In this document: in pieces, positions 2,106 to 14,780 of the stretch
Layout: the number at the start of each line of letters is the position of its first letter
Numbering within the stretch: the first letter of the stretch is position 1
Source: Takakia lepidozioides
Taxonomy: Eukaryota > Plantae > Bryophyta
Assembly: GCA_030704615.1 (NCBI GenBank)
Contig: CM060732.1
Span: 5,208,001 to 5,272,000 of the forward strand
Length of the DNA: 64,000 bases
Direction of reading: 5' to 3'
The notes under the pieces: model-generated
The model's database searches: none
What the model was told of the DNA's origin: nothing
What the model saw: the letters and a program-made list of their open reading frames with translations, nothing else
Made by a program: the position numbers and the translations under genes

Positions 2106-2512
2106 TGTTTTGGTACAACAAGTAGATTTGGACTATGATAAATCAGTATTTTATTATTATTATCCGTTGTGAGCTTGCATTGGGACAAAATGTAGACTTT
2201 TTGAAGAGGAGATCAAGGAGGACGGTCTTTATAAAATATGGTGGCCCTTACATGGAACGTTTAGAAAGTGTCTAATTTAAGCTCTACCAAGCTATGCTTT
2301 TGCTCTAGTTGTCATCGTTCGATTCTGTCTCCTCTGGTGCTTTGGCCAGCAGTTTGACCCCACTATCATTTCCTGTGGATTTATGGCACAGGAAATGCAC
2401 TCAACAGTACATCATGGTCAATACTTTCGGGAAATGGTGGATGGTGTGAGTAGCTAAGTCACAGATCAATGAATGAAGCAAGACACTCGCATCTTTCCAA
2501 GAAGACATCCTT

Positions 2513-2843
2513 TCACCAGTAATCACCACAAGAACAAATCCCATCTTCAAAGTGGTGAGAGCGGTTAGAGTCCCGTACAACAATTGCTCGGCCAACAATC
2601 TTTGAGTTGAATTTGGTGGAGGTGTGGCAGTCACCACACACTAGAAGATTCTTGATGAGACGGAGAGGCGTCCTAGGGGTCATGCTGATCAGCCCAAAAC
2701 CAATGGCCAGCTTCTCACTGTGGTGGCAAAGAGAAAATTTCTTTTCTCCTCCCCACATCATGCAATACAAAGCGTCTGTTAGGCACATACCCCACCTCCT
2801 TCATCTTCCCAGACAATCTTCTTAGCTCAGCATGGATTTCCTT
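2513..2843 (-). pseudogene. 3' part (E+/DYW deaminase domain) of a PLS-PPR editing-factor pseudogene, split by the retroelement
   Basis: [13 protein letters not shown]...[16 protein letters not shown]...[14 protein letters not shown]; upstream KEIHAEL joins HPKIK at about 14049 on the far side of the insertion; frameshifted. Confidence 0.9.
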
Positions 2844-3201
2844 TGTCAAGTTAAATAAGCACAGTGTGAAAAGAACTAGAATAAAGCTAGTTATTTGTAT
2901 TTAACACTTGGATTTAGGTCAAGTGTTAAATCAGGTGTCAAGTTTAGTTTGACACCTGAACGGCCTTATCTTCACGAGAGCGGCAGTCGCGTAGCTCATC
3001 TCTCTCGAGTTGAGCCTGCGCGACCGAGCTCCTTCATGCGTTTAGATCTGAGTGTGCTTATGATGGGAGTGTAGGTTGTTGTGGGGTGGAGTCCCCATAG
3101 CGTGGGGTGCCCCTGGCTCGACTTCTATTTTAAAGAGTGATAGCGATGGATTTCATATTTCTTGTGTTGAGAGTGTGTGTCCTTTTTAGCTCTATTTATC
3201 A
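2844..3201 (+). repeat. 5' LTR segment B (358 bp), lacking the first ~87 bp of the full LTR
   Basis: tgtcaagttaaataag...ctctatttatca; no mismatch seen by eye against 13605-13962. Confidence 0.95.
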
Positions 3202-3214
3202 CTCGAGAGAGATG
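3201..3214 (+). promoter_or_regulatory. Putative self-priming primer-binding site
   Basis: actcgagagagatg is the exact reverse complement of catctctctcgagt at 2997-3010 inside the LTR; no TGG-starting tRNA PBS follows the LTR. Confidence 0.7.
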
Positions 3215-3699
3215 CTCTCTTACTTGTGAGTGCAAGGTAGGAGTTGAGGGTTAGCACTTGCAAGATTACTTGTGTGTAAGTAGTGCTTAGTTTGAGAAGC
3301 ATATCATTGAATGTGACCACAAGATTCAGCGTGCCCTGAAACGCCTGGAGGATGACGATGCCAGAGCCGTCACTGTTGTTGCAGTCGCTGAAGCTACCAA
3401 GTCACCAGAGGCTTTGGAGTACACAAGGCAAATCAAGGAGAAGATGAAAGTTGCGGAGTACATGGATCTGGATGGGAAAGCAGACAACAAAATTCGGATA
3501 ATGGAGGACGTGGAAGTAAAAAACTGGCAGCAGCCGATGAACACCAAGACAAACACGGCAGCTCACATTCCAGGCACAAGAAGAATATAGGCGGAAGCAA
3601 GATGCACTGCGAAGGCGACAGGCACAAGTGGGTGGAAACGCTTTATCTTTGAGTGATCTCGAGTTCGTAGCATTCTTGACTGAGGAGGGTACGATTGCA

Positions 3700-4040
3700 G
3701 ACTGCAGCAAACCTGACTCGAAGGCAAGTGTGTATGCCATTTTTTTATGAGGAAAAGATTCTATATTACGTTGGTGTCTCAAGACAGGCTTATCAGAGTA
3801 TGAGGCTACACTTTGCACGCAAGCCGCTACAATGCTGGTATGTGAAGGTGCAGAATGAGAACCGTCCAGCCGAGCTCTACTTGAAAGCATTCGAAACAAA
3901 TGGATCTCTGACAATGGTGCAGTTCCCAGCGGAAATGACAATGGGAAGTTGCAAAATATTTGGGAGAACCCACTGGATTGCAAACCTCTCATGAGAGAAG
4001 AAGAGAAGCTGAAGGTTGAAGAGGCAAAGGACGTTGTTAA
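3700..4040 (+). pseudogene. Frameshifted fragment of a GIY-YIG-like (GrxS16 N-terminal / cyanobacterial type) gene inside the retroelement
   Basis: Joining frames gives SVYAIF-YEEKILYYVGVSRQAYQSMRLHFARKPLQCWYVKVQNENRP-SRALLESIRNKWISDNGAVPSGNDNGKLQNIWENPLDCKPLM. Confidence 0.6.
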
Positions 4041-5389
4041 GAACAGGAAGAAGCGGGAGCGGCGATGTCTCGGTAGAGCAACCTGACGGTAGAGATGTGA
4101 AAGAGAATGTGGAGAAGTCGACAGGTTGGGCACTGTCAGCTCAGGAAGAGACCATTCAGAGAGAGCTTGAGCGTGAAAGAAACAGGGCACAACCAAAGGA
4201 GCTGATGGCCTTCTAAGTCTTTGATTTGGCAGCTTGCAGCTGCCTCATTGCAACATTGTTTATCCCTGAACAACCAGCCATATCTCTTCCCACCTCTTAT
4301 ATAGACATCAGAACTGTACAATGGATGAGGGATGGACTCAAGAAGGGGTGCTCCACACATGGGAGGGAGCTGCTGGTCCTCTGCAGATATGCATCACCAG
4401 CCTAGCAGCAGTGGGAGCAACAAGCAAGAGATTGACAAAGTAAGACATGCAAGCTAAGAATTGAAGGTGGGAGTTAGGAGCATGCTGCGTGCAGCATTTG
4501 CAGACTCAGGCAGCAGCTGAGAAGGAAGAGGCTCAAACCAATGTTGAGGGAGGCCCATCGAAGCAGTTTCAGGCACCTCAAGTACCAAGTCCTTCGTCAC
4601 CAAGGGATTTTCCTTCTCTTTCTGTGCTTGAAGAAGTGAATGGGTCGGGTCAGCCCTTTCTAGCAGGGCAAGCATGCTTGGTGGGGAGTCTAGACGCGTC
4701 CAGGGAACTCGTCCAAGGTTGGTACTAGTTTGTGCATGAACGTTTGAATTTCTTTGCCAAAAGATAGCCTCCCCGGCCTTACTGTGAGCCGCTTTCAGCT
4801 GTCCGTCATACCATTGTCCTTTTGCACTCAACGTTCTCATTAAGTGAGGAGACGTCGTCTTCCTGGGCCGCCCATAGTTTTGGAGCTATCATGGTGCCTG
4901 CACGAGAACGATCTGTGTTGCTCAAGTTGAGCTGACAGGATTGCGGGAGACTGGCGGGCTGCGTTCGCCACAGAGACGACGGCTGCCAGGCGAATATGAA
5001 CAATACCTAAGAGCCGCTGGTACCAATTTAGAACTTTGGGCACATATACAGGAACAGGGAACCAGGGAACAGGGAACCAAGACAATAGAGTTTTCTTTGT
5101 ATTTGTTTTGTCTTATTAAAAAGAAAAAAAGAAAAAGAAAAAAAAGTGTTATGTTTAAAGAGTCTGGTTGGTCATATCTTTGTCAAATGGGCTCCGTTTG
5201 ACTCAATTTTTGAGGGGATGGCTGCAGAAAGGGGAAATCTACCTATCTAGACCTGGTTTTTGTTTCTGGCACTCTGCTAAAAATCTATGGAATTTTTAGA
5301 GTGTGAGTGTGCCGTGAAAGATCCACAATTCTGTTTCTAGAACCAATTCTGGTCTATTTGAGAGACAAATCTGTGGATGTCCTCCTTGT

Positions 5390-6022
5390 ATGGCTGGGGG
5401 AAATGAGGACGTAATTGAAGGGCAGGTCTCTTCTCTTAGCCTGTGCACACAAGGGGACAGGATTTATGTTTCCCAAGGAACTCAGACTGATTTGAGTAGA
5501 GAACAGTTGGACGAGTTGATTGCATACTGGGAGTCAGGCATTAGCAGTAGACAACAGACTGCTGTAGTTGGCGTTGAGGGCCTCAATATCGCTTTGGACA
5601 GTCAGAACTCTGTTGGAGCCAGCAGTTCTGCAGCTGTAAGTGAAATACCAAAGTGGGTGAAAGCTAGGCTTGGAACACAGCCAAAGACAGCCCCGGGGAC
5701 CAAGGTGTTCAGCCACAAGGCAGTGGTGTACTGGAGTAGAGGAGCAGGAGCTACACAAGTTTGTGCAATCAGACATGGTTGCAGCCGGATACGCTCTGCA
5801 CAGGGCAACCACGAGCGGGGGTTCATTAGCAATGACATGTTTGTTGTGCGTGAAGGAGATGCAGTCATTCGCAATGAGGACACCCGCAACCGTCTCAAAG
5901 CTTTCGAGTTGAGAGACTATCAGACCCTACCTTTGTTTTCTTTAGTGTTCAGTGAGCAGGAGATAGGGGAGTATTGCTTTGTCTCTACCTGGCAGAAAGA
6001 GGAGGAGGGTTGGTTAGAGTGA
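5390..6022 (+). CDS. Hypothetical 210-aa ORF inside the retroelement, function unknown
   Basis: ATG-initiated open frame; no domain recognised. Confidence 0.3.
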   Translation: MAGGNEDVIEGQVSSLSLCTQGDRIYVSQGTQTDLSREQLDELIAYWESGISSRQQTAVVGVEGLNIALDSQNSVGASSSAAVSEIPKWVKARLGTQPKTAPGTKVFSHKAVVYWSRGAGATQVCAIRHGCSRIRSAQGNHERGFISNDMFVVREGDAVIRNEDTRNRLKAFELRDYQTLPLFSLVFSEQEIGEYCFVSTWQKEEEGWLE

Positions 6023-6924
6023 GCTACTGTAGCTTGGGACAAGGTTAGTGGCAGGTTTCTGGACATAGATATACCTCCTACACCTTACCATCATGCAGAG
6101 CGAGGCACTTTGAGAGAAGTCTGGCAGTTGATAGCATAGATCAGGATTAGATCTTGCTTGGTCGGGCTTCTATTCTTCCCCTCCATCTCTGTACTATTTT
6201 CATTACCTTGTACTTGTAGTTGCCAAAGCCTCTCTTGGTGGAGGCCAGTCAGTCCGGGGTTTTGGGCTGGGATATTTTGCAGGATCAGCATTGCAGCTGG
6301 ATTTTGGTGTGGGGGTGTTGATGTTTGATTTCTTGTGTTTGGATCCCCCCCAACACCTGCATGCTTGACTGTGCGCCATGTTGGTTTTGTGTGGGCGATT
6401 GCTTTCATAGGGATTAGGCCGGATTTGATCACCGGTCAATCCTAGAGTATGTTGTCGGTGGTGAGGCTGGAGTGATGACCAGCAAGACCACCGCTGTTGA
6501 GGTGGATTCGCTTCTCCCCAGCATGATATGCAGATATGGGGCCCTTCATTGTGAGTGAATGTCACTCGAGTATGCCAAACTAGACCCCAAAACTGGTGAG
6601 TTTGATATGGTGGAGGGAAACCAGGAAAATGAATTTGGATGTTTCTCCCTGGCAGTACCAAGAACGGGTGTCAAGTGTAGAGAATCCAGCTACTCCCCAA
6701 TCCCTCTTGAAAGAAAATTTTCATTGCAAAACTGTCAGCTTCTGAAACATCAGGATTTTGCCAACTACCGTTGAAACAACAGGTGACAACTCCTCTATAC
6801 TGCTCCAGTGATCACCACCCTGGGCACCTCACATATTGTACAGTCTGACTGTTCAACTCAATCTTTCTCAAATCGCTTAGAACATTACATTCCCCTGGAC
6901 ACTCATTCATGCGTGTTGCTTCTT

Positions 6925-7062
6925 TCACCAGTATTCGCCACAAGAACACACCCCATCTTGGAAGTGGTGAAAGCGGTTGGCATCCCGTACAACAATTTCT
7001 CGCCCAACAAGTTTTGAGATGAACTTGGTGGCGGTGTGATAGTCACCGCACACACGAAGGTC
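6925..7062 (-). pseudogene. C-terminal DYW-domain fragment abutting the gag remnant in antisense
   Basis: [44 protein letters not shown]. Confidence 0.9.
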
Positions 7063-7078
7063 CCAACAGCAACTAGGG

Positions 7079-8013
7079 GTGATATGTTGGACATGTAGAG
7101 GACCCATGTCAAGAGAGATTGCCCAGAGAGTGGCAAAAGGCCGGTACAAACACAGCCTGCACAGTTGCAGTGTGGGCATTGTGGCAAGTATGGGCATGGA
7201 GATGCCCAGTGTTATGACTTGCATCCTGAGTTGCGCCCAGGCCAGTTCCAAGGGAACAATGGTGGCCGGGGGCGAGGTGGACCAGCCCAGAGAGGACGAG
7301 GTGGTCGGGCACGAGGTGCAGGCCAAGGGCAAGCTCAACATGGCCAAGGACGCGGAGGTCAGGGTGTTGACCAAGGCATGGCCAACCGGCTTCAGCAGCT
7401 AGAGCAGAGGCTCGCTGCCATGGCTACAGCTCAGGCGGTACGGGCTCCCAGGTGGGATGGTCCACCTCCTATTCCTGAGGGAGGAGATATGGGAGGCATG
7501 GGATTCATGTGCGGAGCAGCACTACCACTAGAGCAGGTGGAGTCTTCTGCACCCGTGACTCGAGGAGCAGCACGAGTTCCTGAGCCACGAGGTGCAGAGG
7601 TGGAGTTGGATCCACAACGTGGGGAGGCAAGCCGTCAGGCGAGGTTGCCTCAGTCATTCACCTTGGCGGAGACAGTGTCAACGCCATCCATGGCACCTAG
7701 TTCTCGTCCGACTGTTACCGAGGCGGAGGTTACTATGCCATTGGGGAGAGCTACACGTGCAGCACTGACAGCTGCTACCAAAGCTAGTGCAGCCGGTGTG
7801 TTATTGGGGGCAACCACCTATGTGTGTCAAGCCCCACTGTTCTCGACAACCATGATTGCGACGCCGGGGGTAAGACCAGCTGCAGTGTTCAGACTAGCAG
7901 CAACACTCTGTGAGAGTGGGGAGGTCACTTCATCCTCTACGGAGTTAGTGGAAGGTGTAGTGGCAGAGGGATCCTCGGATTTGAGGGTCAAGATTGCCAC
8001 GGCTGCGCCCTGA
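7079..8013 (+). pseudogene. gag: gag C-terminal remnant: zinc knuckles and RGG-rich region
   Basis: CWTCRG/HVKRDC (frameshifted), then [14 protein letters not shown], then GGRGRGG repeats. Confidence 0.75.
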
Positions 8014-8031
8014 CAAGCTGCAGCTGCCAGG

Positions 8032-8500
8032 TTGACGGAGCTGCCAGCTAGGCCAGCCTTTGAGCGCGCCATGGTGACACCTGGAGTTGTCTTGTTAGAC
8101 AACCAGGATGGCATTTTCTCTTTGAGTGGACCGACAGGCAAGAAGTACCGGCCACTGCGGGTCTTGTTGGACTCGGGAGCTCAGCCATTGATGTTGGGCA
8201 GAGCTGCTATTGCAGGTTTGGGCCTCATTGAGGCGGATATGGAGCCTTGTCCTTTCCAGATACAGACATCTCTGGGAGGATCAGAGCAGGCTCGGGGCAT
8301 TACACGGCATCAGTTGGCCATTCGACTGCAGCCGGATCATCCTATCAATGGCTCAGTAATGCGAGCCAAGGCCATTGTGACGGACGCGATCTCTTACGAT
8401 GTCCTCGTTGGTGGGGCAGTGTTAGACCCCATGGGCTTCACCCTGGACTTTTGGGAGGAGTCAGCATTCTACAGGCCTGGATGGCAGTCAGGGGATGGTC
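8032..8500 (+). pseudogene. pol: Retroviral-type aspartic protease
   Basis: RVLLDSGAQP catalytic motif at about 8170; downstream YDVLVGGAVL. Confidence 0.85.
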
Positions 8501-8880
8501 ATCGTGCACAGCGCCCTGTGACATTCATTGGGGGTATTGCGGCTGCTCAACGGGGCAAGATGCCAACACTAGCCGCCTTTACAGCTGCAGTTAGTTGGCC
8601 TGGAGAGTTGCTGGAAGACAATGCCCATGCAGAGGATGTGTCATCTCCAGCAGAGCAGGATGACATGCATGGTATGGCAAAGTTGCCTGCCATGGTTGCT
8701 CACACTCCATTGTGGGGTACGAGCAAGGATTTACAGCAGGTTGCTGATGGACGAGTGCAACAGGCCTGGGTAGAGGCTTTTGTACCATCAAGAGAGGTGG
8801 AGAGTGCGGGTATTGCACCAAGACCACCTCAGTTGTCACCATTGGATACCACACCTATTGTGTGGCAGTATCCGGATGAA

Positions 8881-9830
8881 GGCATTTGCTTTTTGGACTT
8901 GTTTGGCGGGATCAGCACCGGATTGGCTGCTGTGCTACAGGTAGGTGTGCGGGTAAGGCGTTACCTGTATGTGGAGAGGGATGAGACTGCTCGACACGTC
9001 TCACTGCGCCATGTTGCTCAGTTGGTACAGCAGTACCCTGCTTTGTTGCCAGTGTCTGCAGTTCGTGGATACCAACAAGCCTTGCAAGCAGACATTTCGT
9101 TGCTGGGGGCGCCGGATTTGGAGCAGGTTGGCTCCATTGATCTGGTAGTGGCAGGTTGGCCCTGCCAAGGGCATTCATCAGCCGGGCATGGCAATGGATT
9201 TTGAGACTCGAGGACGGGTCTGTTTTGGGAGATGGTGCGGGTTTTGCGCCACTTGCAGCTTCATCAAGCTGTATCTCCAGCATACATCTTGGAGAATGTG
9301 CCACTGATGGGTGATTCTTGGGCCAGGGTGATGGCCAGTGTGCATCAAGTCCGGTCGTGGCTTGGGTCAGCAGTGTTGCTGGATGCAGCTGCAGTGGGGT
9401 CACGGGCTCATTGTCCACGGCTTTGGTGGACTAACTTGATGCCACCCGCACTGCTCAAGCGTGCATTTGCAGCGGCCAGCACACCTCACTGTGGATGGCA
9501 TTTTGGACACAGGGAGGCAGTCTCAACGTGTGAGACACGATGACCGTTCGCCTCTGGCAGTGGTCAACAGGGTGGGTCAACCACGAGCAGCATTACCTAC
9601 ACTGCTCAGCTTCCCAGGATCTCATGCTTTTCGGGATGGTGGACCTGGCCTCCTGTGGGATGCTCAGTTGCAGCAGTTAGTGGAGCCTAATGCCAACGAG
9701 CGAGAGCGGGCTATGGGGTTTTCCACTGGGACCACGGTGGTGCCTTCTCTTTCTGAGGCATCACGGCGTCAGGTGTTGGGGCAAGCAATGGATCTCAATT
9801 GCTTGACCTGGATTATCAGCTTGGCTATGG
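8881..9830 (+). pseudogene. DNMT3-like cytosine-5 DNA methyltransferase domain within pol
   Basis: Motif I FLDLFGGISTG, II RYLYVE, IV DLVVAGWPCQ (catalytic PC at 9160-9165), VI YILENV, VIII AHCPRLWWTNL, IX ERERAMGF, X RRQVLGQAM, in canonical order; one TGA at 9202 and a frameshift near 9470. Confidence 0.92.
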
Positions 9831-10282
9831 CTGAGCAACGTAGAGTGCGGAGTGCACTCCCCTTCATGGTCTCTCTGCCTACCGAGACGGTACAGGCAGC
9901 AAGTGGGGGCGAGCTGGTGAGGACCACTGGGTGTAGACATCCATGGCACACGTGGGAGGTGCTCGAGGTTCAGAGGGAGTTGGCAGCCAAGGCAGCTGTG
10001 ATGGATGAGGTTGGGGATTCTTCTCGGGATGAGGAGGTTCTCAATGATGAGATGATGGGGCAGGATGAGGCCTTGTCATTGACTGAGCAGGAAGGGAGTA
10101 CTGCTCAAGAGGTTGTAGCATAGCAACCACGGGACGCGTCCTCTACCTCTAAGCCCACTGGACTTAAGGTTGCAGTTACGGAGGACAATTGGGAGCCTGA
10201 CATTGAACCCATTGTCACCGGAGGAGAGAGACGACGTATACGGCGGTTCCTGAGGGCTTATAGGAATTGTTTTGCCTTCAGT

Positions 10283-11163
10283 TTGAAGGACTTGGGAGCA
10301 CTGAAGGGTCAAGAGATCCGTATTGAGTTGGCCACTGACACGCCAATCTTTCGGAGACCCTATAGATACAGTGACATGGAGAGGTCTTTGATTCAGATGA
10401 GGACTCAAGATCCCTGGGAGGCAGGTTTGGTGGAGCTCTCTGGTGGAGAGTATGCTTCAGCCACAGTGATGCCAGCCAAGAAGGATGTCTATGGCAATTG
10501 GACGGAGAGACGTATGTGCGGTGATTACCGGCCTGTAAATCGTCAGACCATGTCCGATAGGTATGCCATGCCGACACCAGAGGAGATCTTTGATGCCATT
10601 GGGCATTCCAAGGTCTTTAGCACGTTGGATTTATGATCCGGATATCACCAGTTGCCGATCAAGGAGGCGGATAAGCAAAAGACGGCATTTTGGGGGATCA
10701 ATGAGCACGGGAAGGATTGCCTATACCAGTGGCGGTTCTTACCATTTGGGCTTAAAACGCTCCCGCTGAGTTTCAAAGAGTCATGGACACGATTCTGGCA
10801 GGGGTGGAGTTTGCTCGGTGCTACATAGATGACATCATCATCTTTAGTGCTACGGTGGAGGAGCATGAGAGACACCTTCAGGGGGTATTTGAGCGCTTGA
10901 GGACCCACGGATTAAAGTTACATCCCGGCAAGTGCAAGTTTTTCCACAACCAGATTGAGTATCTGGGTCATATGATATATCCTGCAGGATTGGGGGTACA
11001 ACAGACTAAGGTAGAGTCCATTGCACAGGTTCCACGCCCCACGGATGTGAGCCGAGTTCGAGCTTTCATGGGGTTAACAAACTATTACAGACGGTTTGTT
11101 AAGGGATTTAGTGCCATTGCAAAGGCTCTAACCAAGCTGACCAAGGTGGACCAGGAGTGGTAG
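10283..11163 (+). pseudogene. pol: Reverse transcriptase (gypsy type)
   Basis: RMCGDYRPVN, FSTLDL*SGYHQ, LPFGL, CYIDDIIIFS, KC..IEYLGH, FMGLTNYYRRFV. Confidence 0.95.
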
Positions 11164-11208
11164 TGGGAAGATGAGCAAGAACAAGCTTTTCAAGAGCTCA
11201 AGGCGAGG

Positions 11209-13257
11209 TTGACCTCGGCGCCCATCTTGAGACGACCTATCAGGGGGCGTCCTTTTCAGCTGCATACAGATTGGAGCATGCTGGGGCTTGGAGCGGTGCT
11301 CACACAGGTGGATGATGAGGGAAGAGAGTTCGTAGTGGTTTATGCTAGCCGCTCGAACAATGCTGCAGAGTCTAAGTATAGCTCATATGAGGGAGAATGC
11401 TTAGTTGCAGTGTGGGCCGTGGCACACTTCAGGTGCTATCTATATGGCAATCTCTTCACCCTTGTCACGGATCACCAACCACTCAAGTGGTTGATGGAGT
11501 CAGACAAGCTTACGGGGAAGCTTGCACGGTGGGCACTCATCCTTCAAGAGTATGACTTCCAGGTGGTGCATCGACCGGGTTTGGTCAATCGCAATGCAGA
11601 TGGGTTGAGTTGCAATCCATGCACGAGCCAGCAGGATGACACTGGAGCTCGGTGGCATGGTGAGACGGACGAGGAGATGGTGCCCGGATGGCATGCATCT
11701 GCATTTCTGTGTATCTTGGCAGCGGAAGGCCAGGTTGGACCTGCAACAGGGATGACTGTAGATCAAGTGTCTGAGGACCCTGAGGCCAGCAATGAGCAAG
11801 GTGGTGCCAACGATATACATGAGGATTCAGTTGTGTTGGACTACCTCCGCACTGGAGACACTGCAGCCACTGTGACTGCAAAGGAGAGGGATCGGATCCT
11901 ACAACGAGCCAAGAGGTTCAAGTGGGAGGGGACACACCTGCTCCGAGTGTGGGAGGATGGTCGAGTGAGAATTGTGCCTCACCCAACACAGCGGGCACGG
12001 TTAGTGCGGCATGCCCATGAGGAGTTGGGGCATTTTGGGGTGCGACGCACTCATAGTCTACTGCAGGGGCAGTATTGGTGGCGTGGTATGCACACAGAGG
12101 TGCAACAATTTGTGGCTAGGTGCATGGTGTGTGACAAGGTGCGTGCTTCATTCAACGCCCCTACTCCACAATTGCACCCTCTTCCGATCATGGGATTGGG
12201 CTACAGGTGGAGTCTTGATTTCGCAGGGCCGTTGCCACTGACCATGCGCCACAACAAGTACGTGTTGGTGATGGTTGAGCACTTCTCCAAGTGGATTGAA
12301 TTGGTTCCATTGCCTGATAAGGCTAGTGAGGGAGCTGCGTATGCATTCTTGGATTGTGTGCTTAGCCGATTCGGTGCTCCAGCTGAGGTACTCACAGACC
12401 AAGGGAGAGAGTTCTTGGGGGAGTTTCAGGCTTTGTGTGACAAGGCCTTGATAGACCACCGCACCACTTCTCGGGATCATCCTGAGGCCGATGGCTTGGC
12501 AGAGAGAGTTGTTCAGACATTAAAGAGGGGTTTGCGCAAGTATGGCTTGCAGAAGGGACACCTAGGAGATTGGGACCTTCAGTTACCCTGGTTAGCCATG
12601 GGCTACAGGTTCAGCAAGCAAGCATCACTTGCCTCCTTCTCATCATACTTTCTTCTCTTTGGCCGAGAGCCGGATTTGCTTACATCCATTCGCAGAGAAG
12701 CTGCTACAATTCTTAACCTTGACGATCCGGACGTGTGGGCACGTGTATGTGAGCAGCGTGCAGAGTTATTCAAGAGAGTCATGCCCATGGCTTTCGAGAA
12801 CCTTGCCATTGCACAACACCGTGATACGTTGAGGTATGCTACCATACGTGGTGGGGGCTATCGTCCTGGGGTTCGGAGATTCAACCCTGGTGACTATGTC
12901 TATCTGCAGCAAACTGCTCCTACGACCTTGGATGTGACTGCAGGACGTGTTATTCTGAGGGTTCGAGAGGTCTTGCCCTCAGGCGTCTTGGTCTTGGAGG
13001 GTCGGGATGGCATAACTTGGAAGGACCATGTGCGTAATTGTGCGCCATGTCACCTTCCGAATGTCGATGGCAGGATAGACCCAAACTTGACAGTGGTATC
13101 TGAAGGTTTGAGGTGCATGTTGTGTGGGTCTGCTAGAGGGGCAGCCACCATGCTGGTGTGTGATTGATGCTCTAGAGGTTGGCATATAGGATGCTTGACT
13201 CCACCTCCTGAGATGGTTCCGGATGGGGATTGGTTATGTCCACATTGCATTGGATAG
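11209..13257 (+). pseudogene. pol: RNase H, integrase and C-terminal PHD finger
   Basis: LHTDWS..GAVL, YEGECL, TDHQPL, ADGLS (RNase H); HEELGH..CMVC, LDFAGPL, TDQGREF, GLAERVVQ (integrase); CMLC..MLVCD*CSRGWHIGCLTPP...GDWLCPHC (C4HC3). Confidence 0.95.
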
Positions 13258-13506
13258 TGGGAGTGGATACAACCATGGAAGGCTAACAAGAAACGCAAGG
13301 CCCAGCTACTAGGAGACCTTGAACACACGAGGTCCTGGCTCAAGTTCACAGATTGCAAGACGGCGATTAACGATGGGGCTACTCTTGTACCCGGCCTCTT
13401 GGTCTATAGAGTTTGAGTGCAATAGGGGCAGTGATAGAGGACTTAGTACGGCTGTGGCTATTACATCTTGTAGCTATCTGGAGGTAGAGGGACCTACCCA
13501 CCAGCT

Positions 13507-13516
13507 AGGGGGGCGA
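13507..13516 (+). promoter_or_regulatory. Polypurine tract
   Basis: aggggggcga just before the TG that starts the full 3' LTR at 13518. Confidence 0.7.
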
Positions 13517-13517
13517 T

Positions 13518-13962
13518 TGTGGCAGACTACTTTATTGTGTATATATATGTGGTGTGGTTTGGACAGCGATGTAGTTGTGTAGCGATATGTATGCGCACGA
13601 CAGCTGTCAAGTTAAATAAGCACAGTGTGAAAAGAACTAGAATAAAGCTAGTTATTTGTATTTAACACTTGGATTTAGGTCAAGTGTTAAATCAGGTGTC
13701 AAGTTTAGTTTGACACCTGAACGGCCTTATCTTCACGAGAGCGGCAGTCGCGTAGCTCATCTCTCTCGAGTTGAGCCTGCGCGACCGAGCTCCTTCATGC
13801 GTTTAGATCTGAGTGTGCTTATGATGGGAGTGTAGGTTGTTGTGGGGTGGAGTCCCCATAGCGTGGGGTGCCCCTGGCTCGACTTCTATTTTAAAGAGTG
13901 ATAGCGATGGATTTCATATTTCTTGTGTTGAGAGTGTGTGTCCTTTTTAGCTCTATTTATCA
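13518..13962 (+). repeat. Complete 3' LTR (A+B, 445 bp, TG...CA)
   Basis: Starts tgtggcag after the PPT and ends tttatca, the same end that precedes the PBS in the 5' copy. Confidence 0.88.
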
Positions 13963-14048
13963 TTGTGGCAGACTACTTTATTGTGCATATATATGTGGTG
14001 TGGTTTGGACAACGATGTAGTTGTGTAGCGATATGTATGCGCACGACA
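13963..14048 (+). repeat. Extra copy of LTR segment A at the right end of the element
   Basis: 86-bp match to 13517-13602 with two transitions; ends gcacgaca. Confidence 0.95.
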
Positions 14049-14215
14049 TCTTAATTTTGGGATGCAACTTGTCATCTACAACGAAGGTTTGCACCTTGTT
14101 GCAAATCTCAATGCAGCAGCGACCTGGCTCCTTTTCAACCCCTCTGACCTTCATCATTCTTCTCACCTTTACAGTATCAACCCACCTGCCAGCTACAACA
14201 TACACTACAACACAC
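14049..14215 (-). pseudogene. E2/PG-box part of the PPR-DYW pseudogene split by the retroelement
   Basis: VYVVAGRWVDTVKVRRMMKVRGVEKEPGRCCIEICNKVQTFVVDDKLHPKIK. Confidence 0.88.
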
Positions 14216-14551
14216 CCTATGTAATTTCGACGATTAAGTTTGACGCTGGCGTTGACTATTGTCACTTTCGACTATTCCAACCATTTTGCAGACAAATTTT
14301 ATATTAAAATATTCGAGGTGCTAGACAACCGCGAAAATTTTGACTGTAGTGAGAGACTTTGACTACCTAAAATGAGGTGACTGAGACAACCAGTTAAGCA
14401 ATGGCACGTGTAATCACAATATATAAATTATATAACAATATATATGTGGATAATAAGAAGTTAAAAAAATACCTATTTTTTCACTGATCCAGCACATTAA
14501 TAGTAAACTAATCGTGTGCTGGTTAAGATTAGTGAAACAAAATAACTGAAT

Positions 14552-14780
14552 TATATGAACGAATGATAAACAAACGCCTTACTGGCAGCTATTGGATGAA
14601 CGTATGAAAGGTTAGTGACACAAAACAACTGAATTACCTGAACGAGTGATAAACAAACGCCTTGCTGGCAACTATTGGATAAACGTATGAAATATAATTT
14701 TTGTGCACTGGATGAACGTATGAATGAACGATAAAGAAAACGCCTTGCTGGCAACTATTGTATGAACGTATGAATGGATG
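14552..14780. repeat. Three imperfect tandem copies of an ~80-95 bp unit
   Basis: Core gataaa(c/g)aaacgcctt(a/g)ctggca(g/a)ctattg.at.aacgtatgaa repeated three times. Confidence 0.75.

Follow-up and report, generated by a model that had tools for sequence, protein, structure and literature searches.

Retrotransposons carrying a DNMT3-like DNA methyltransferase domain have been described before (de Mendoza et al. 2018; PMC5890265): KnitGypsy-Dnmt3 of Klebsormidium nitens joins such a domain to DIRS-like repeats and has a Ka/Ks below 0.2, SymbioDIRS-Dnmt3 has a domain active on CG in yeast, and self-methylation of cDNA was proposed for dinoflagellate DIRS elements. Here we describe an 11.2-kb Gypsy-type element (2844-14048) in a stretch of 64,000 nucleotides (hereafter the window) of the moss Takakia lepidozioides (assembly GCA_030704615.1, contig CM060732.1, positions 5,208,001 to 5,272,000 of the forward strand), where it is inserted in a land-plant pentatricopeptide repeat (PPR) gene and carries, between protease and reverse transcriptase (RT), a domain that is, judged by sequence, DNMT3-like and unpermuted. 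The copy in the window is dead. In working copies of the family, at a probability of roughly 0.55, a conserved DNMT3-like enzyme would be made in Gag-level amounts, be packaged in the particle and methylate the cDNA newly copied from the element itself.

The element shares with KnitGypsy-Dnmt3 the Gypsy set of protease, RT, RNase H and integrase, the unpermuted, intronless DNMT3-like domain within the element, the split repeats and the signature of purifying selection, and differs from it in its land-plant host and in the separation of methyltransferase and RT, which occupy one open reading frame (ORF) there but are divided here, in the same frame, by a conserved stop (PMC5890265). Neither this stop nor a PHD finger, a target duplication, self-priming, a palindrome or chlorophyte relatives are mentioned in the sections of that paper covered here (PMC5890265). 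The Klebsormidium protein KFL_009030040 (P0062), which we infer to be KnitGypsy-Dnmt3, has the order protease, methyltransferase, RT, RNase H, integrase and agrees with the window at ~46% in the methyltransferase; in trees built by FastTree with one outgroup, the two elements are homologous in both domains and fall in one broad group, not as sisters. The A1-ORFs-B1-A2-B2 repeats and the DNMT3-like domain recur in SymbioDIRS-Dnmt3 (PMC5890265), from which, as from DIRS, PAT and Ngaro elements, the present element is distinguished by its DDE integrase, its protease, its TG..CA ends and target duplications of 4 bp; eight window frames and two intact relatives showed no tyrosine recombinase. Its TGTC..GACA ends and 4-bp duplication agree with the TG..CA ends and 4-6 bp duplications of Ty3/Gypsy long terminal repeat (LTR) retrotransposons, as do its primer site after A1 and its purine tract before B1, but the two complete terminal LTRs are absent. 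DAM-LTRs and EpiLTRs are likewise Gypsy elements with DNA methyltransferases, some of them green-algal, but what they carry is either an adenine methyltransferase or, together with a chromodomain, a domain related to DNMT4, and the preprint describing them separates them from streptophyte Gypsy-DNMT3 elements (bioRxiv 10.64898/2026.05.21.726589). After the integrase of the window element, domain searches returned a PHD finger and no chromodomain match.

The methyltransferase domain and its retention

The first-pass annotation had read C5-methyltransferase motifs I, II, IV, VI, VIII, IX and X in this order at 8881-9830, motifs I-IV in one ORF with the protease, and both statements held. Every named motif was found (I, LDLFGGI at 8893; II, YVERD at 8968; IV, GWPCQG at 9154-9171; VI, ILENV at 9286; VIII, RAHCPRLWW at 9403; IX, EPNANERERAMGF at 9683; X, LGQAMD at 9776), the order is canonical, no introns interrupt it, and the frame 8014-9204 is shared with the protease motif LLDSGA. 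Three lesions break the domain: a stop at 9202-9204, a frameshift at ~9468 and the missing first Arg of motif VIII (9412-9414). Neither these lesions, nor the full extent of 2844-14048, nor the departure of the repeats from ordinary LTRs was part of the first-pass annotation. With the stop read as X, the N-terminal part nevertheless matches PF00145 at 3e-13, above the Pfam cut-off, as the first-pass annotation had proposed to check. The preference of that annotation for DNMT3 over the permuted DRM is also borne out. Against solved structures the window domain ranks human DNMT3A first (1.4e-8), ahead of HhaI (3.6e-5) and DRM (1e-4); a 24-sequence profile again ranks DNMT3A first (DNMT3A 2.8e-24, DRM 5.7e-15, HhaI 8e-8, DNMT2 1e-6), and the predicted fold of the relative P0010 (pLDDT 71, pTM 0.74) finds DNMT3A, B or C in all 35 Foldseek rows listed, with DNMT3A best (E 7e-17). 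Host DNMT3 enzymes (animal DNMT3A/B; moss PpDNMT3, PMC6453930) thus share the motif order and give the best sequence and fold match, but here the catalytic domain stands by itself within a retrotransposon, at ~21% identity to DNMT3A; the domain search detected no histone-reading module on the methyltransferase domain itself.

A search for long related proteins gave 68 matches among 6896 candidates, of which the 24 with names comprise 19 from Marchantia polymorpha, 2 from Calypogeia fissa, 2 from Sphagnum and 1 from Klebsormidium nitens. Another 80 loci were retained of 318 in metagenomes, and 75 of the 80 hold another element domain in the same order. Because these loci had been selected through the methyltransferase, a search independent of it was run with an RNase H-integrase query, and among the best 120 of 446 long relatives 110 carry the domain. 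Seven of the remaining ten begin too near the RT to include it, one is an unrelated arachnid Gypsy element, and two (P0410, P0453) lack it. The PHD finger at the integrase end is kept in nearly all relatives.

A profile search yielded 570 clusters (50% identity) with E up to 1e-30, and in its best 150 representatives the catalytic Cys is present in 146/148, the Glu of ENV in 150/150 and each Arg of RxR in 148/149. Motif IV reads GWEC or GFEC, not GWPC, in 82/148 representatives (within P0190-P0335) and 24/76 loci (within L053-L080); many of these domains escape Pfam PF00145. The ratio of nonsynonymous to synonymous substitution (dN/dS) is 0.096 for the window against 12 moss-type loci, at a dS of 2.5 that is near saturation, and 0.186 for L026 against the same 12 (dS 1.6). 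Among L048-L051 it is 0.111 at dS 1.0 (3 of 5 pairs usable), with 0.110 for the protease and 0.052 for the RT, and one further pair between subfamilies gives 0.24. Within the decaying moss-type subfamily the methyltransferase stands at 0.63 vs 0.49 for the RT. By these sequence comparisons the methyltransferase is under purifying selection (dN/dS 0.09-0.24 between subfamilies), and the methyltransferase and RT trees are broadly concordant. The first-pass annotation had allowed for sister copies without the domain, for neutral evolution and for loss of the catalytic PC/ENV residues; what was found instead is a domain present in sister copies, constrained, and with its catalytic Cys and ENV Glu nearly always in place.

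The window copy did acquire a fragment of a host PPR gene and its methyltransferase is broken, both of which would suit a one-off capture of a host DNMT3 fragment that has since evolved neutrally. This idea has a negligible probability: the domain is intronless and sits at the identical position in dozens of loci from several species, it is under purifying selection with broadly agreeing methyltransferase and RT trees, and sister contigs differ from the window at the stop and the frameshift. In public contigs bearing the same organism label or that of a second organism (B), 536,046 of 541,288 depth units (99%) in X1, and all in X5 and X9, differ from the window at the methyltransferase stop; the same contigs have loose ends at the frameshift near 9468, and one 5009-nt contig of organism B covers 8573-13522. 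Contig depth is not copy number, and the depths in X1 of 0.8-1.2 million in the methyltransferase bins vs 0.9-1.3 million in the RT/integrase bins are a weak hint only. Sister contigs, selection and the RNase H-integrase relatives already refute a one-off capture.

Relatives were also found in the chlorophytes Scenedesmus, Chlamydomonas reinhardtii (CHLRE_09g398141v5), Haematococcus, Pleodorina and Tetrabaena, in which the methyltransferase lies between RNase H and integrase. This second architecture, RT-RNase H-methyltransferase-integrase-PHD, is in fact the majority among the 120 pol relatives (87 in plain form) and includes P0205, P0448, P0399, P0428, P0406, P0433, P0392 and L082:122-9916. 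Both trees recover it as a single clade (support 0.80 for RT, 0.95 for methyltransferase), which in the RT tree is nested among elements with the methyltransferase between protease and RT; the trees (FastTree, one outgroup) hold element sequences only, without host DNMT rows, and the P0018 row of the methyltransferase tree, probably badly cut, was ignored. The simplest reading of these sequences, and a likely one, is a single old capture followed by a move of the domain; transfer between lineages could also account for the wide range. In the algal-type locus L082 the G-run is still present, as is a palindrome of 14 bp, GCGACAGCTGTCGC. Both L082 and L081 are whole elements within cyanobacterial genome bins, probably misbinned eukaryotic contamination; apart from these two, scans of prokaryotes and viruses returned weak ordinary methylases only (29/31 and 17/17 loci), and a search with P0209 gave no match.

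The stop between methyltransferase and RT

Between the methyltransferase and the RT lies an in-frame TAG at 10121-10123 that, from its conservation, is not a lesion. In the window's clade, 39 loci have both domains, some of them representing the same insertion; nine are frameshifted in the linker, and all 30 in-frame loci have a stop at this site, followed in 29 by CARYY (contexts seen: CAACCA, CAACCC, CAACTA, CAACTC, CAGTTA and CAATCA). Among the 127 TAG triplets of the element, the one at 10121 is the sole one with CARYYA next to it. The Marchantia proteins P0003, P0007 and P0024 and the Calypogeia protein P0006 have their C-terminus 94-98 residues past motif X, and in L081 two uninterrupted ORFs are divided by the conserved stop alone. 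A stop followed by CARYYA is the plant read-through consensus, for which one assay gave 9-32% read-through in three viral contexts (PMC5397192, PMC2754532).

Because this stop sits between methyltransferase and RT, the methyltransferase ends the Gag-protease frame and is not part of pol. The statement in the first-pass annotation that the domain is part of the polyprotein therefore stands in so far as the domain belongs to the element family; in the window's clade it closes the Gag-protease frame and is not in the RT-bearing one. Translation would yield mostly a Gag-protease-methyltransferase product, read-through of UAG-CARYY(A) would add the RT-RNase H-integrase-PHD fusion, and we infer from this layout that the methyltransferase is made in excess over RT and integrase.

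Split repeats, ends and the insertion

The repeats are laid out as A1-body-B1-A2-B2, with no LTR pair and with termini, A and B, that differ in sequence (Table 1). All four repeats were recovered in 6 further loci and the 3' triplet in 5 more. Among nine two-ended elements the 4-bp target duplications are perfect in six, carry one mismatch (a transition) in two, including the window, and are absent in one. A 3-bp duplication plus an extra base would fit the window alone and is ruled out by the six relatives with perfect 4-bp duplications, and the TGTC..GACA ends and 4-bp duplications likewise rule out a Troyka element, since that group has CG..CG ends, 3-bp duplications and an animals-only range (PMC12440569). 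The B1/A2 join, GACA-GC-TGTC, is perfect in 6 of the 15 joins listed and altered by transitions in the rest of these; it is also perfect in both L081 and L082.

Table 1. Features of the element and its insertion site (positions in the window)
Feature	Position	Strand	Remark
Host PPR E+/DYW pseudogene, 3' side of insertion	2508..2839	-	5' side is 14053-14230
Left target duplication, CCTT	2840..2843	+	4-bp length set by 6 perfect cases among 9 two-ended elements
Repeat A1, 358 bp, starts TGTC, ends CA	2844..3201	+	identical to A2
Predicted self-primer	2997..3009	+	13-nt reverse complement of the bases directly after A1
Putative primer-binding site	3202..3214	+	no tRNA-type TGG start; pairs with 2997-3009
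Stop-to-stop frame, 234 aa, 5' region	5318..6022	+	no family match
Host PPR-DYW gene fragment	6922..7059	-	occupies the place of the gag capsid in relatives
Gag C-terminal part, CCHC-like knuckle	7099..8013	+	stop at end, in frame with protease ORF
Aspartic protease	8149..8364	+	LLDSGA at 8164; weak Pfam match plus motif
DNMT3-like C5-methyltransferase, motifs I-X	8881..9830	+	broken
Conserved in-frame TAG then CAACCA	10121..10129	+	CARYYA read-through context, between methyltransferase and RT
Reverse transcriptase	10262..11100	+	YIDD at 10822; broken by one stop and one frameshift
RNase H	11248..11553	+
DDE integrase (rve) with H2C2 zinc-binding domain	11983..12516	+
PHD finger, C-terminus of integrase	13114..13248	+	2.5e-11; one internal stop
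Purine-rich tract (G-run)	13500..13517	+	immediately before B1
Repeat B1, 85 bp	13518..13602	+	ends CACGACA
Palindrome GACAGCTGTC at B1/A2 join	13599..13608	.	each half is an element terminus
Repeat A2	13605..13962	+
Repeat B2	13964..14048	+	2 differences from B1; ends GACA, the element end
Right target duplication, TCTT	14049..14052	+	single transition from left copy

A self-complementary primer site, perfect over 9-16 nt, was found in 12 of 24 loci and in 0 of 200 controls each, in four unrelated sequence types, and in 8 of the 12 the complement lies 26-33 nt downstream of a TATA box. L049 and L081 have further primer complements, of 15 and 12 nt, with compensating changes, and the centroid fold of the window pairs its primer site with the self-primer; no clear complement was found in L082, the 5' repeat of which lies beyond its contig. 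Tf1, Tj1 and Tcn1 similarly do without a tRNA, their primer site being the complement of the predicted 5' end of the RNA, and Tj1 has a gag/pol stop, but Tcn1 belongs to the chromoviruses with ordinary LTRs, as opposed to the PHD finger, split repeats and methyltransferase found here (PMC4600332, PMC6317226). The RNA 5' end would thus prime its own minus strand in a Tf1-like manner.

In ordinary LTR replication, the primer site and the purine tract delimit the repeat that is replicated. Here that repeat is B-GC-A, and therefore ordinary reverse transcription, with the plus strand beginning at B, would yield B-A-body-B-A. The integrated form is this same molecule with its first B shifted to the far end, exactly the product of a join followed by a cut at the palindrome: the ends would be ligated, integrase would cut the upstream palindrome GACA/GC/TGTC with a 2-nt stagger, and the CA-3' ends would insert as A-body-B-A-B. 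Integrases of HIV-1 and foamy virus cleave palindromic two-LTR joins (PMC1905944, PMC1180852). In sequence the A2/B2 joins look like ligated ends: most have one or two spare bases (AT in 4 loci of one subfamily), L073 is two bases short, that of L030 holds a 21-nt insert ending in the purine-tract end, and that of L031/L033, although a rearranged copy, holds nine bases of the primer site. We give this circle route somewhat better than an even chance.

A closed circle would, however, hold two palindromes, and the mirror product A-B-A-body-B occurs in 0 of the 26 loci with a visible 5' end, which demands either an unexplained bias in the cut or a B2 templated on linear DNA. For split-repeat DIRS and Ngaro elements a template-jump model exists, and a comparable scheme without any circle cut, in which B2 is copied from RNA or through a template jump and integrase trims the outer joins of linear DNA, would explain why A-body-B-A-B is the only form, why B1 and B2 of the window differ at 2 of 85 positions vs 0 of 358 for A1 and A2, and why many A2/B2 joins are alike within a subfamily. 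Its standing is nonetheless lowered by A and B pairs that are about equally diverged in five relatives (A 5-10%, B 4.5-9%), by the location of primer site and purine tract where ordinary LTR replication requires them, and by the remnants of either in some A2/B2 joins, so that we regard a templated B2 as a serious possibility that falls short of an even chance.

A1 and A2 are identical despite the many lesions of the body and the three transitions seen in B and the target duplication taken together; movement of a defective copy in trans, gene conversion or assembly polishing may account for the A1/A2 identity. L081 (9285 bp) and L049 (9317 bp) each consist of a whole element with one B-A repeat, the ends of L081 overlapping by 127 bp, and represent either collapsed repeats or a one-repeat circle. 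Ends with a single B (L008, L020, L022, L053, L070) were considered as a second product and set aside: the right flank of L022 is that of the full-form L044, and collapse or B-B recombination is likelier.

The element interrupts a PPR-DYW pseudogene within its E+ region; insertion-free contigs connect 2840 directly with 14050. The decay of the window copy comprises stops at 8011, 9202, 10634, 11161 and 13165 and frameshifts near 9468 and near 10755; no gag capsid is detectable in it, and neither Pfam nor Atlas offers a match for the 234-aa frame at 5318. Two segments inside the element, 3382-4945 and 6510-6900, have a contig depth ~1000-fold below that of pol in X1 and are probably captured host DNA; the first looks like the remains of a coding region, and a 2869-nt contig in X7 matches it. 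Elsewhere in the window, PLS-type PPR(-E-DYW) genes and fragments, many of them broken, cluster on both strands at 15000-37600, and the flank depth suggests that the unit of this cluster is repeated in the genome. A search with PPR sequence of the window placed the host among land plants only, at 28-48% identity to proteins of lycophytes, ferns, gymnosperms, liverworts, mosses and angiosperms. Short imperfect direct repeats lie in the flanks (14525-14777 and 890-1075), and no tRNA genes were found in the 64 kb.

Proposed role and wider meaning

Near-invariant catalytic residues and expression on the Gag side make methylation of cDNA in the particle the likeliest role. The enzyme would mark the cDNA before integration, probably at CG, and a new copy so marked would resemble host chromatin or limit its own expression. 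Repeat B is CpG-rich (observed/expected 1.31 vs 0.46-0.56 in coding parts), which as a pointer to a methylation role is suggestive only.

Several results weigh against this proposal. No methylation was seen when the Klebsormidium domain was assayed in yeast, a result that its authors call inconclusive (PMC5890265), and the Pro before the catalytic Cys is replaced by Glu in 82/148 representatives. Several of the dS estimates approach saturation, and the loci compared include some that represent the same insertion. The largest moss-type subfamily has CAACCC after the stop and lacks the final A of CARYYA. No such stop occurs in a distant subfamily (9 of 15 in-frame loci fully open, 0 of 15 with the context) or in Klebsormidium P0062. 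A clean primer complement is missing from half of the loci (12/24), and in the window no TATA box precedes the site.

The failure in yeast (PMC5890265) and the Pro-to-Glu change beside the catalytic Cys, together with weak, motif-poor domains in Chlamydomonas P0448 and the Tetrabaena proteins, would also suit a domain kept for binding and not for DNA methylation, one that coats or packages nucleic acid, modifies the element's RNA or acts as a decoy against host DNMT3; the presumed Gag-level amounts fit a structural or decoy function. Such a role seems quite unlikely given that the Cys, the Glu and both Arg are almost invariant over deep divergence and that the profile matches DNMT3 far above DNMT2 (2.8e-24 vs 1e-6). 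Action on chromatin, with the insertion site or other copies being methylated and the PHD finger of the integrase reading histone marks for site choice, is an alternative that we consider unlikely. It would account for the retention of the PHD finger in nearly all relatives and for the chlorophyte domain directly before the integrase, and the moss host enzyme DNMT3b does methylate heterochromatin de novo at CG and CHH (PMC6453930). The domain itself, however, is without a histone-reading module, and in the window's clade it lies on the Gag side of the stop, away from the integrase, which fits a role in the particle better.

Methylation of cDNA within the particle may be one part of a broader picture, which we offer tentatively and, taken as a whole, regard as less likely than not: an old Gypsy lineage across both halves of the green plants would follow a replication path so far unreported among LTR elements, in which self-primed reverse transcription from a permuted LTR leads through end-joining to integrase cleavage of an internal palindrome as its normal entry, and in land plants a leaky stop would make the DNMT3-like enzyme a Gag-level component of the particle that methylates cDNA, possibly at the CpG-rich B end to steer the choice of palindrome.

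The first-pass annotation knew of no characterised land-plant family. Our literature search, which did not extend to Repbase, journals behind subscription or the main supplement to the 2018 paper, likewise found no description of land-plant or chlorophyte members; the kind of element as such is not new, since an example from Klebsormidium that shares this repeat layout is already in print (PMC5890265). Two later papers speak of 'streptophytes', which may cover land plants, and the passages of PMC9915684 consulted hold nothing relevant. Added here are the relatives in Marchantia, Calypogeia, Sphagnum and chlorophytes, the conserved read-through-type stop, and the split-repeat anatomy with its self-priming site, purine tract before B, 4-bp duplications and palindrome.

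Why a transposon should carry an enzyme that silences it has been an open question since 2018, when the Gypsy case came from one alga and was inactive in yeast. With relatives that go under the label of hypothetical proteins in Marchantia polymorpha, Sphagnum and algae of the Chlamydomonas group, the question reaches model organisms with methylation mutants, in which the anatomy of the element offers several direct tests; these relatives may also inflate the counts of DNA-methyltransferase genes there. The split-repeat layout would likely be missed by programs that look for LTR pairs, which may explain the absence of the lineage from the passages on plant LTR classification consulted here. Should cutting of the internal palindrome prove to be the normal route, a natural element would depend chiefly on what retroviral integrases do as a side activity.

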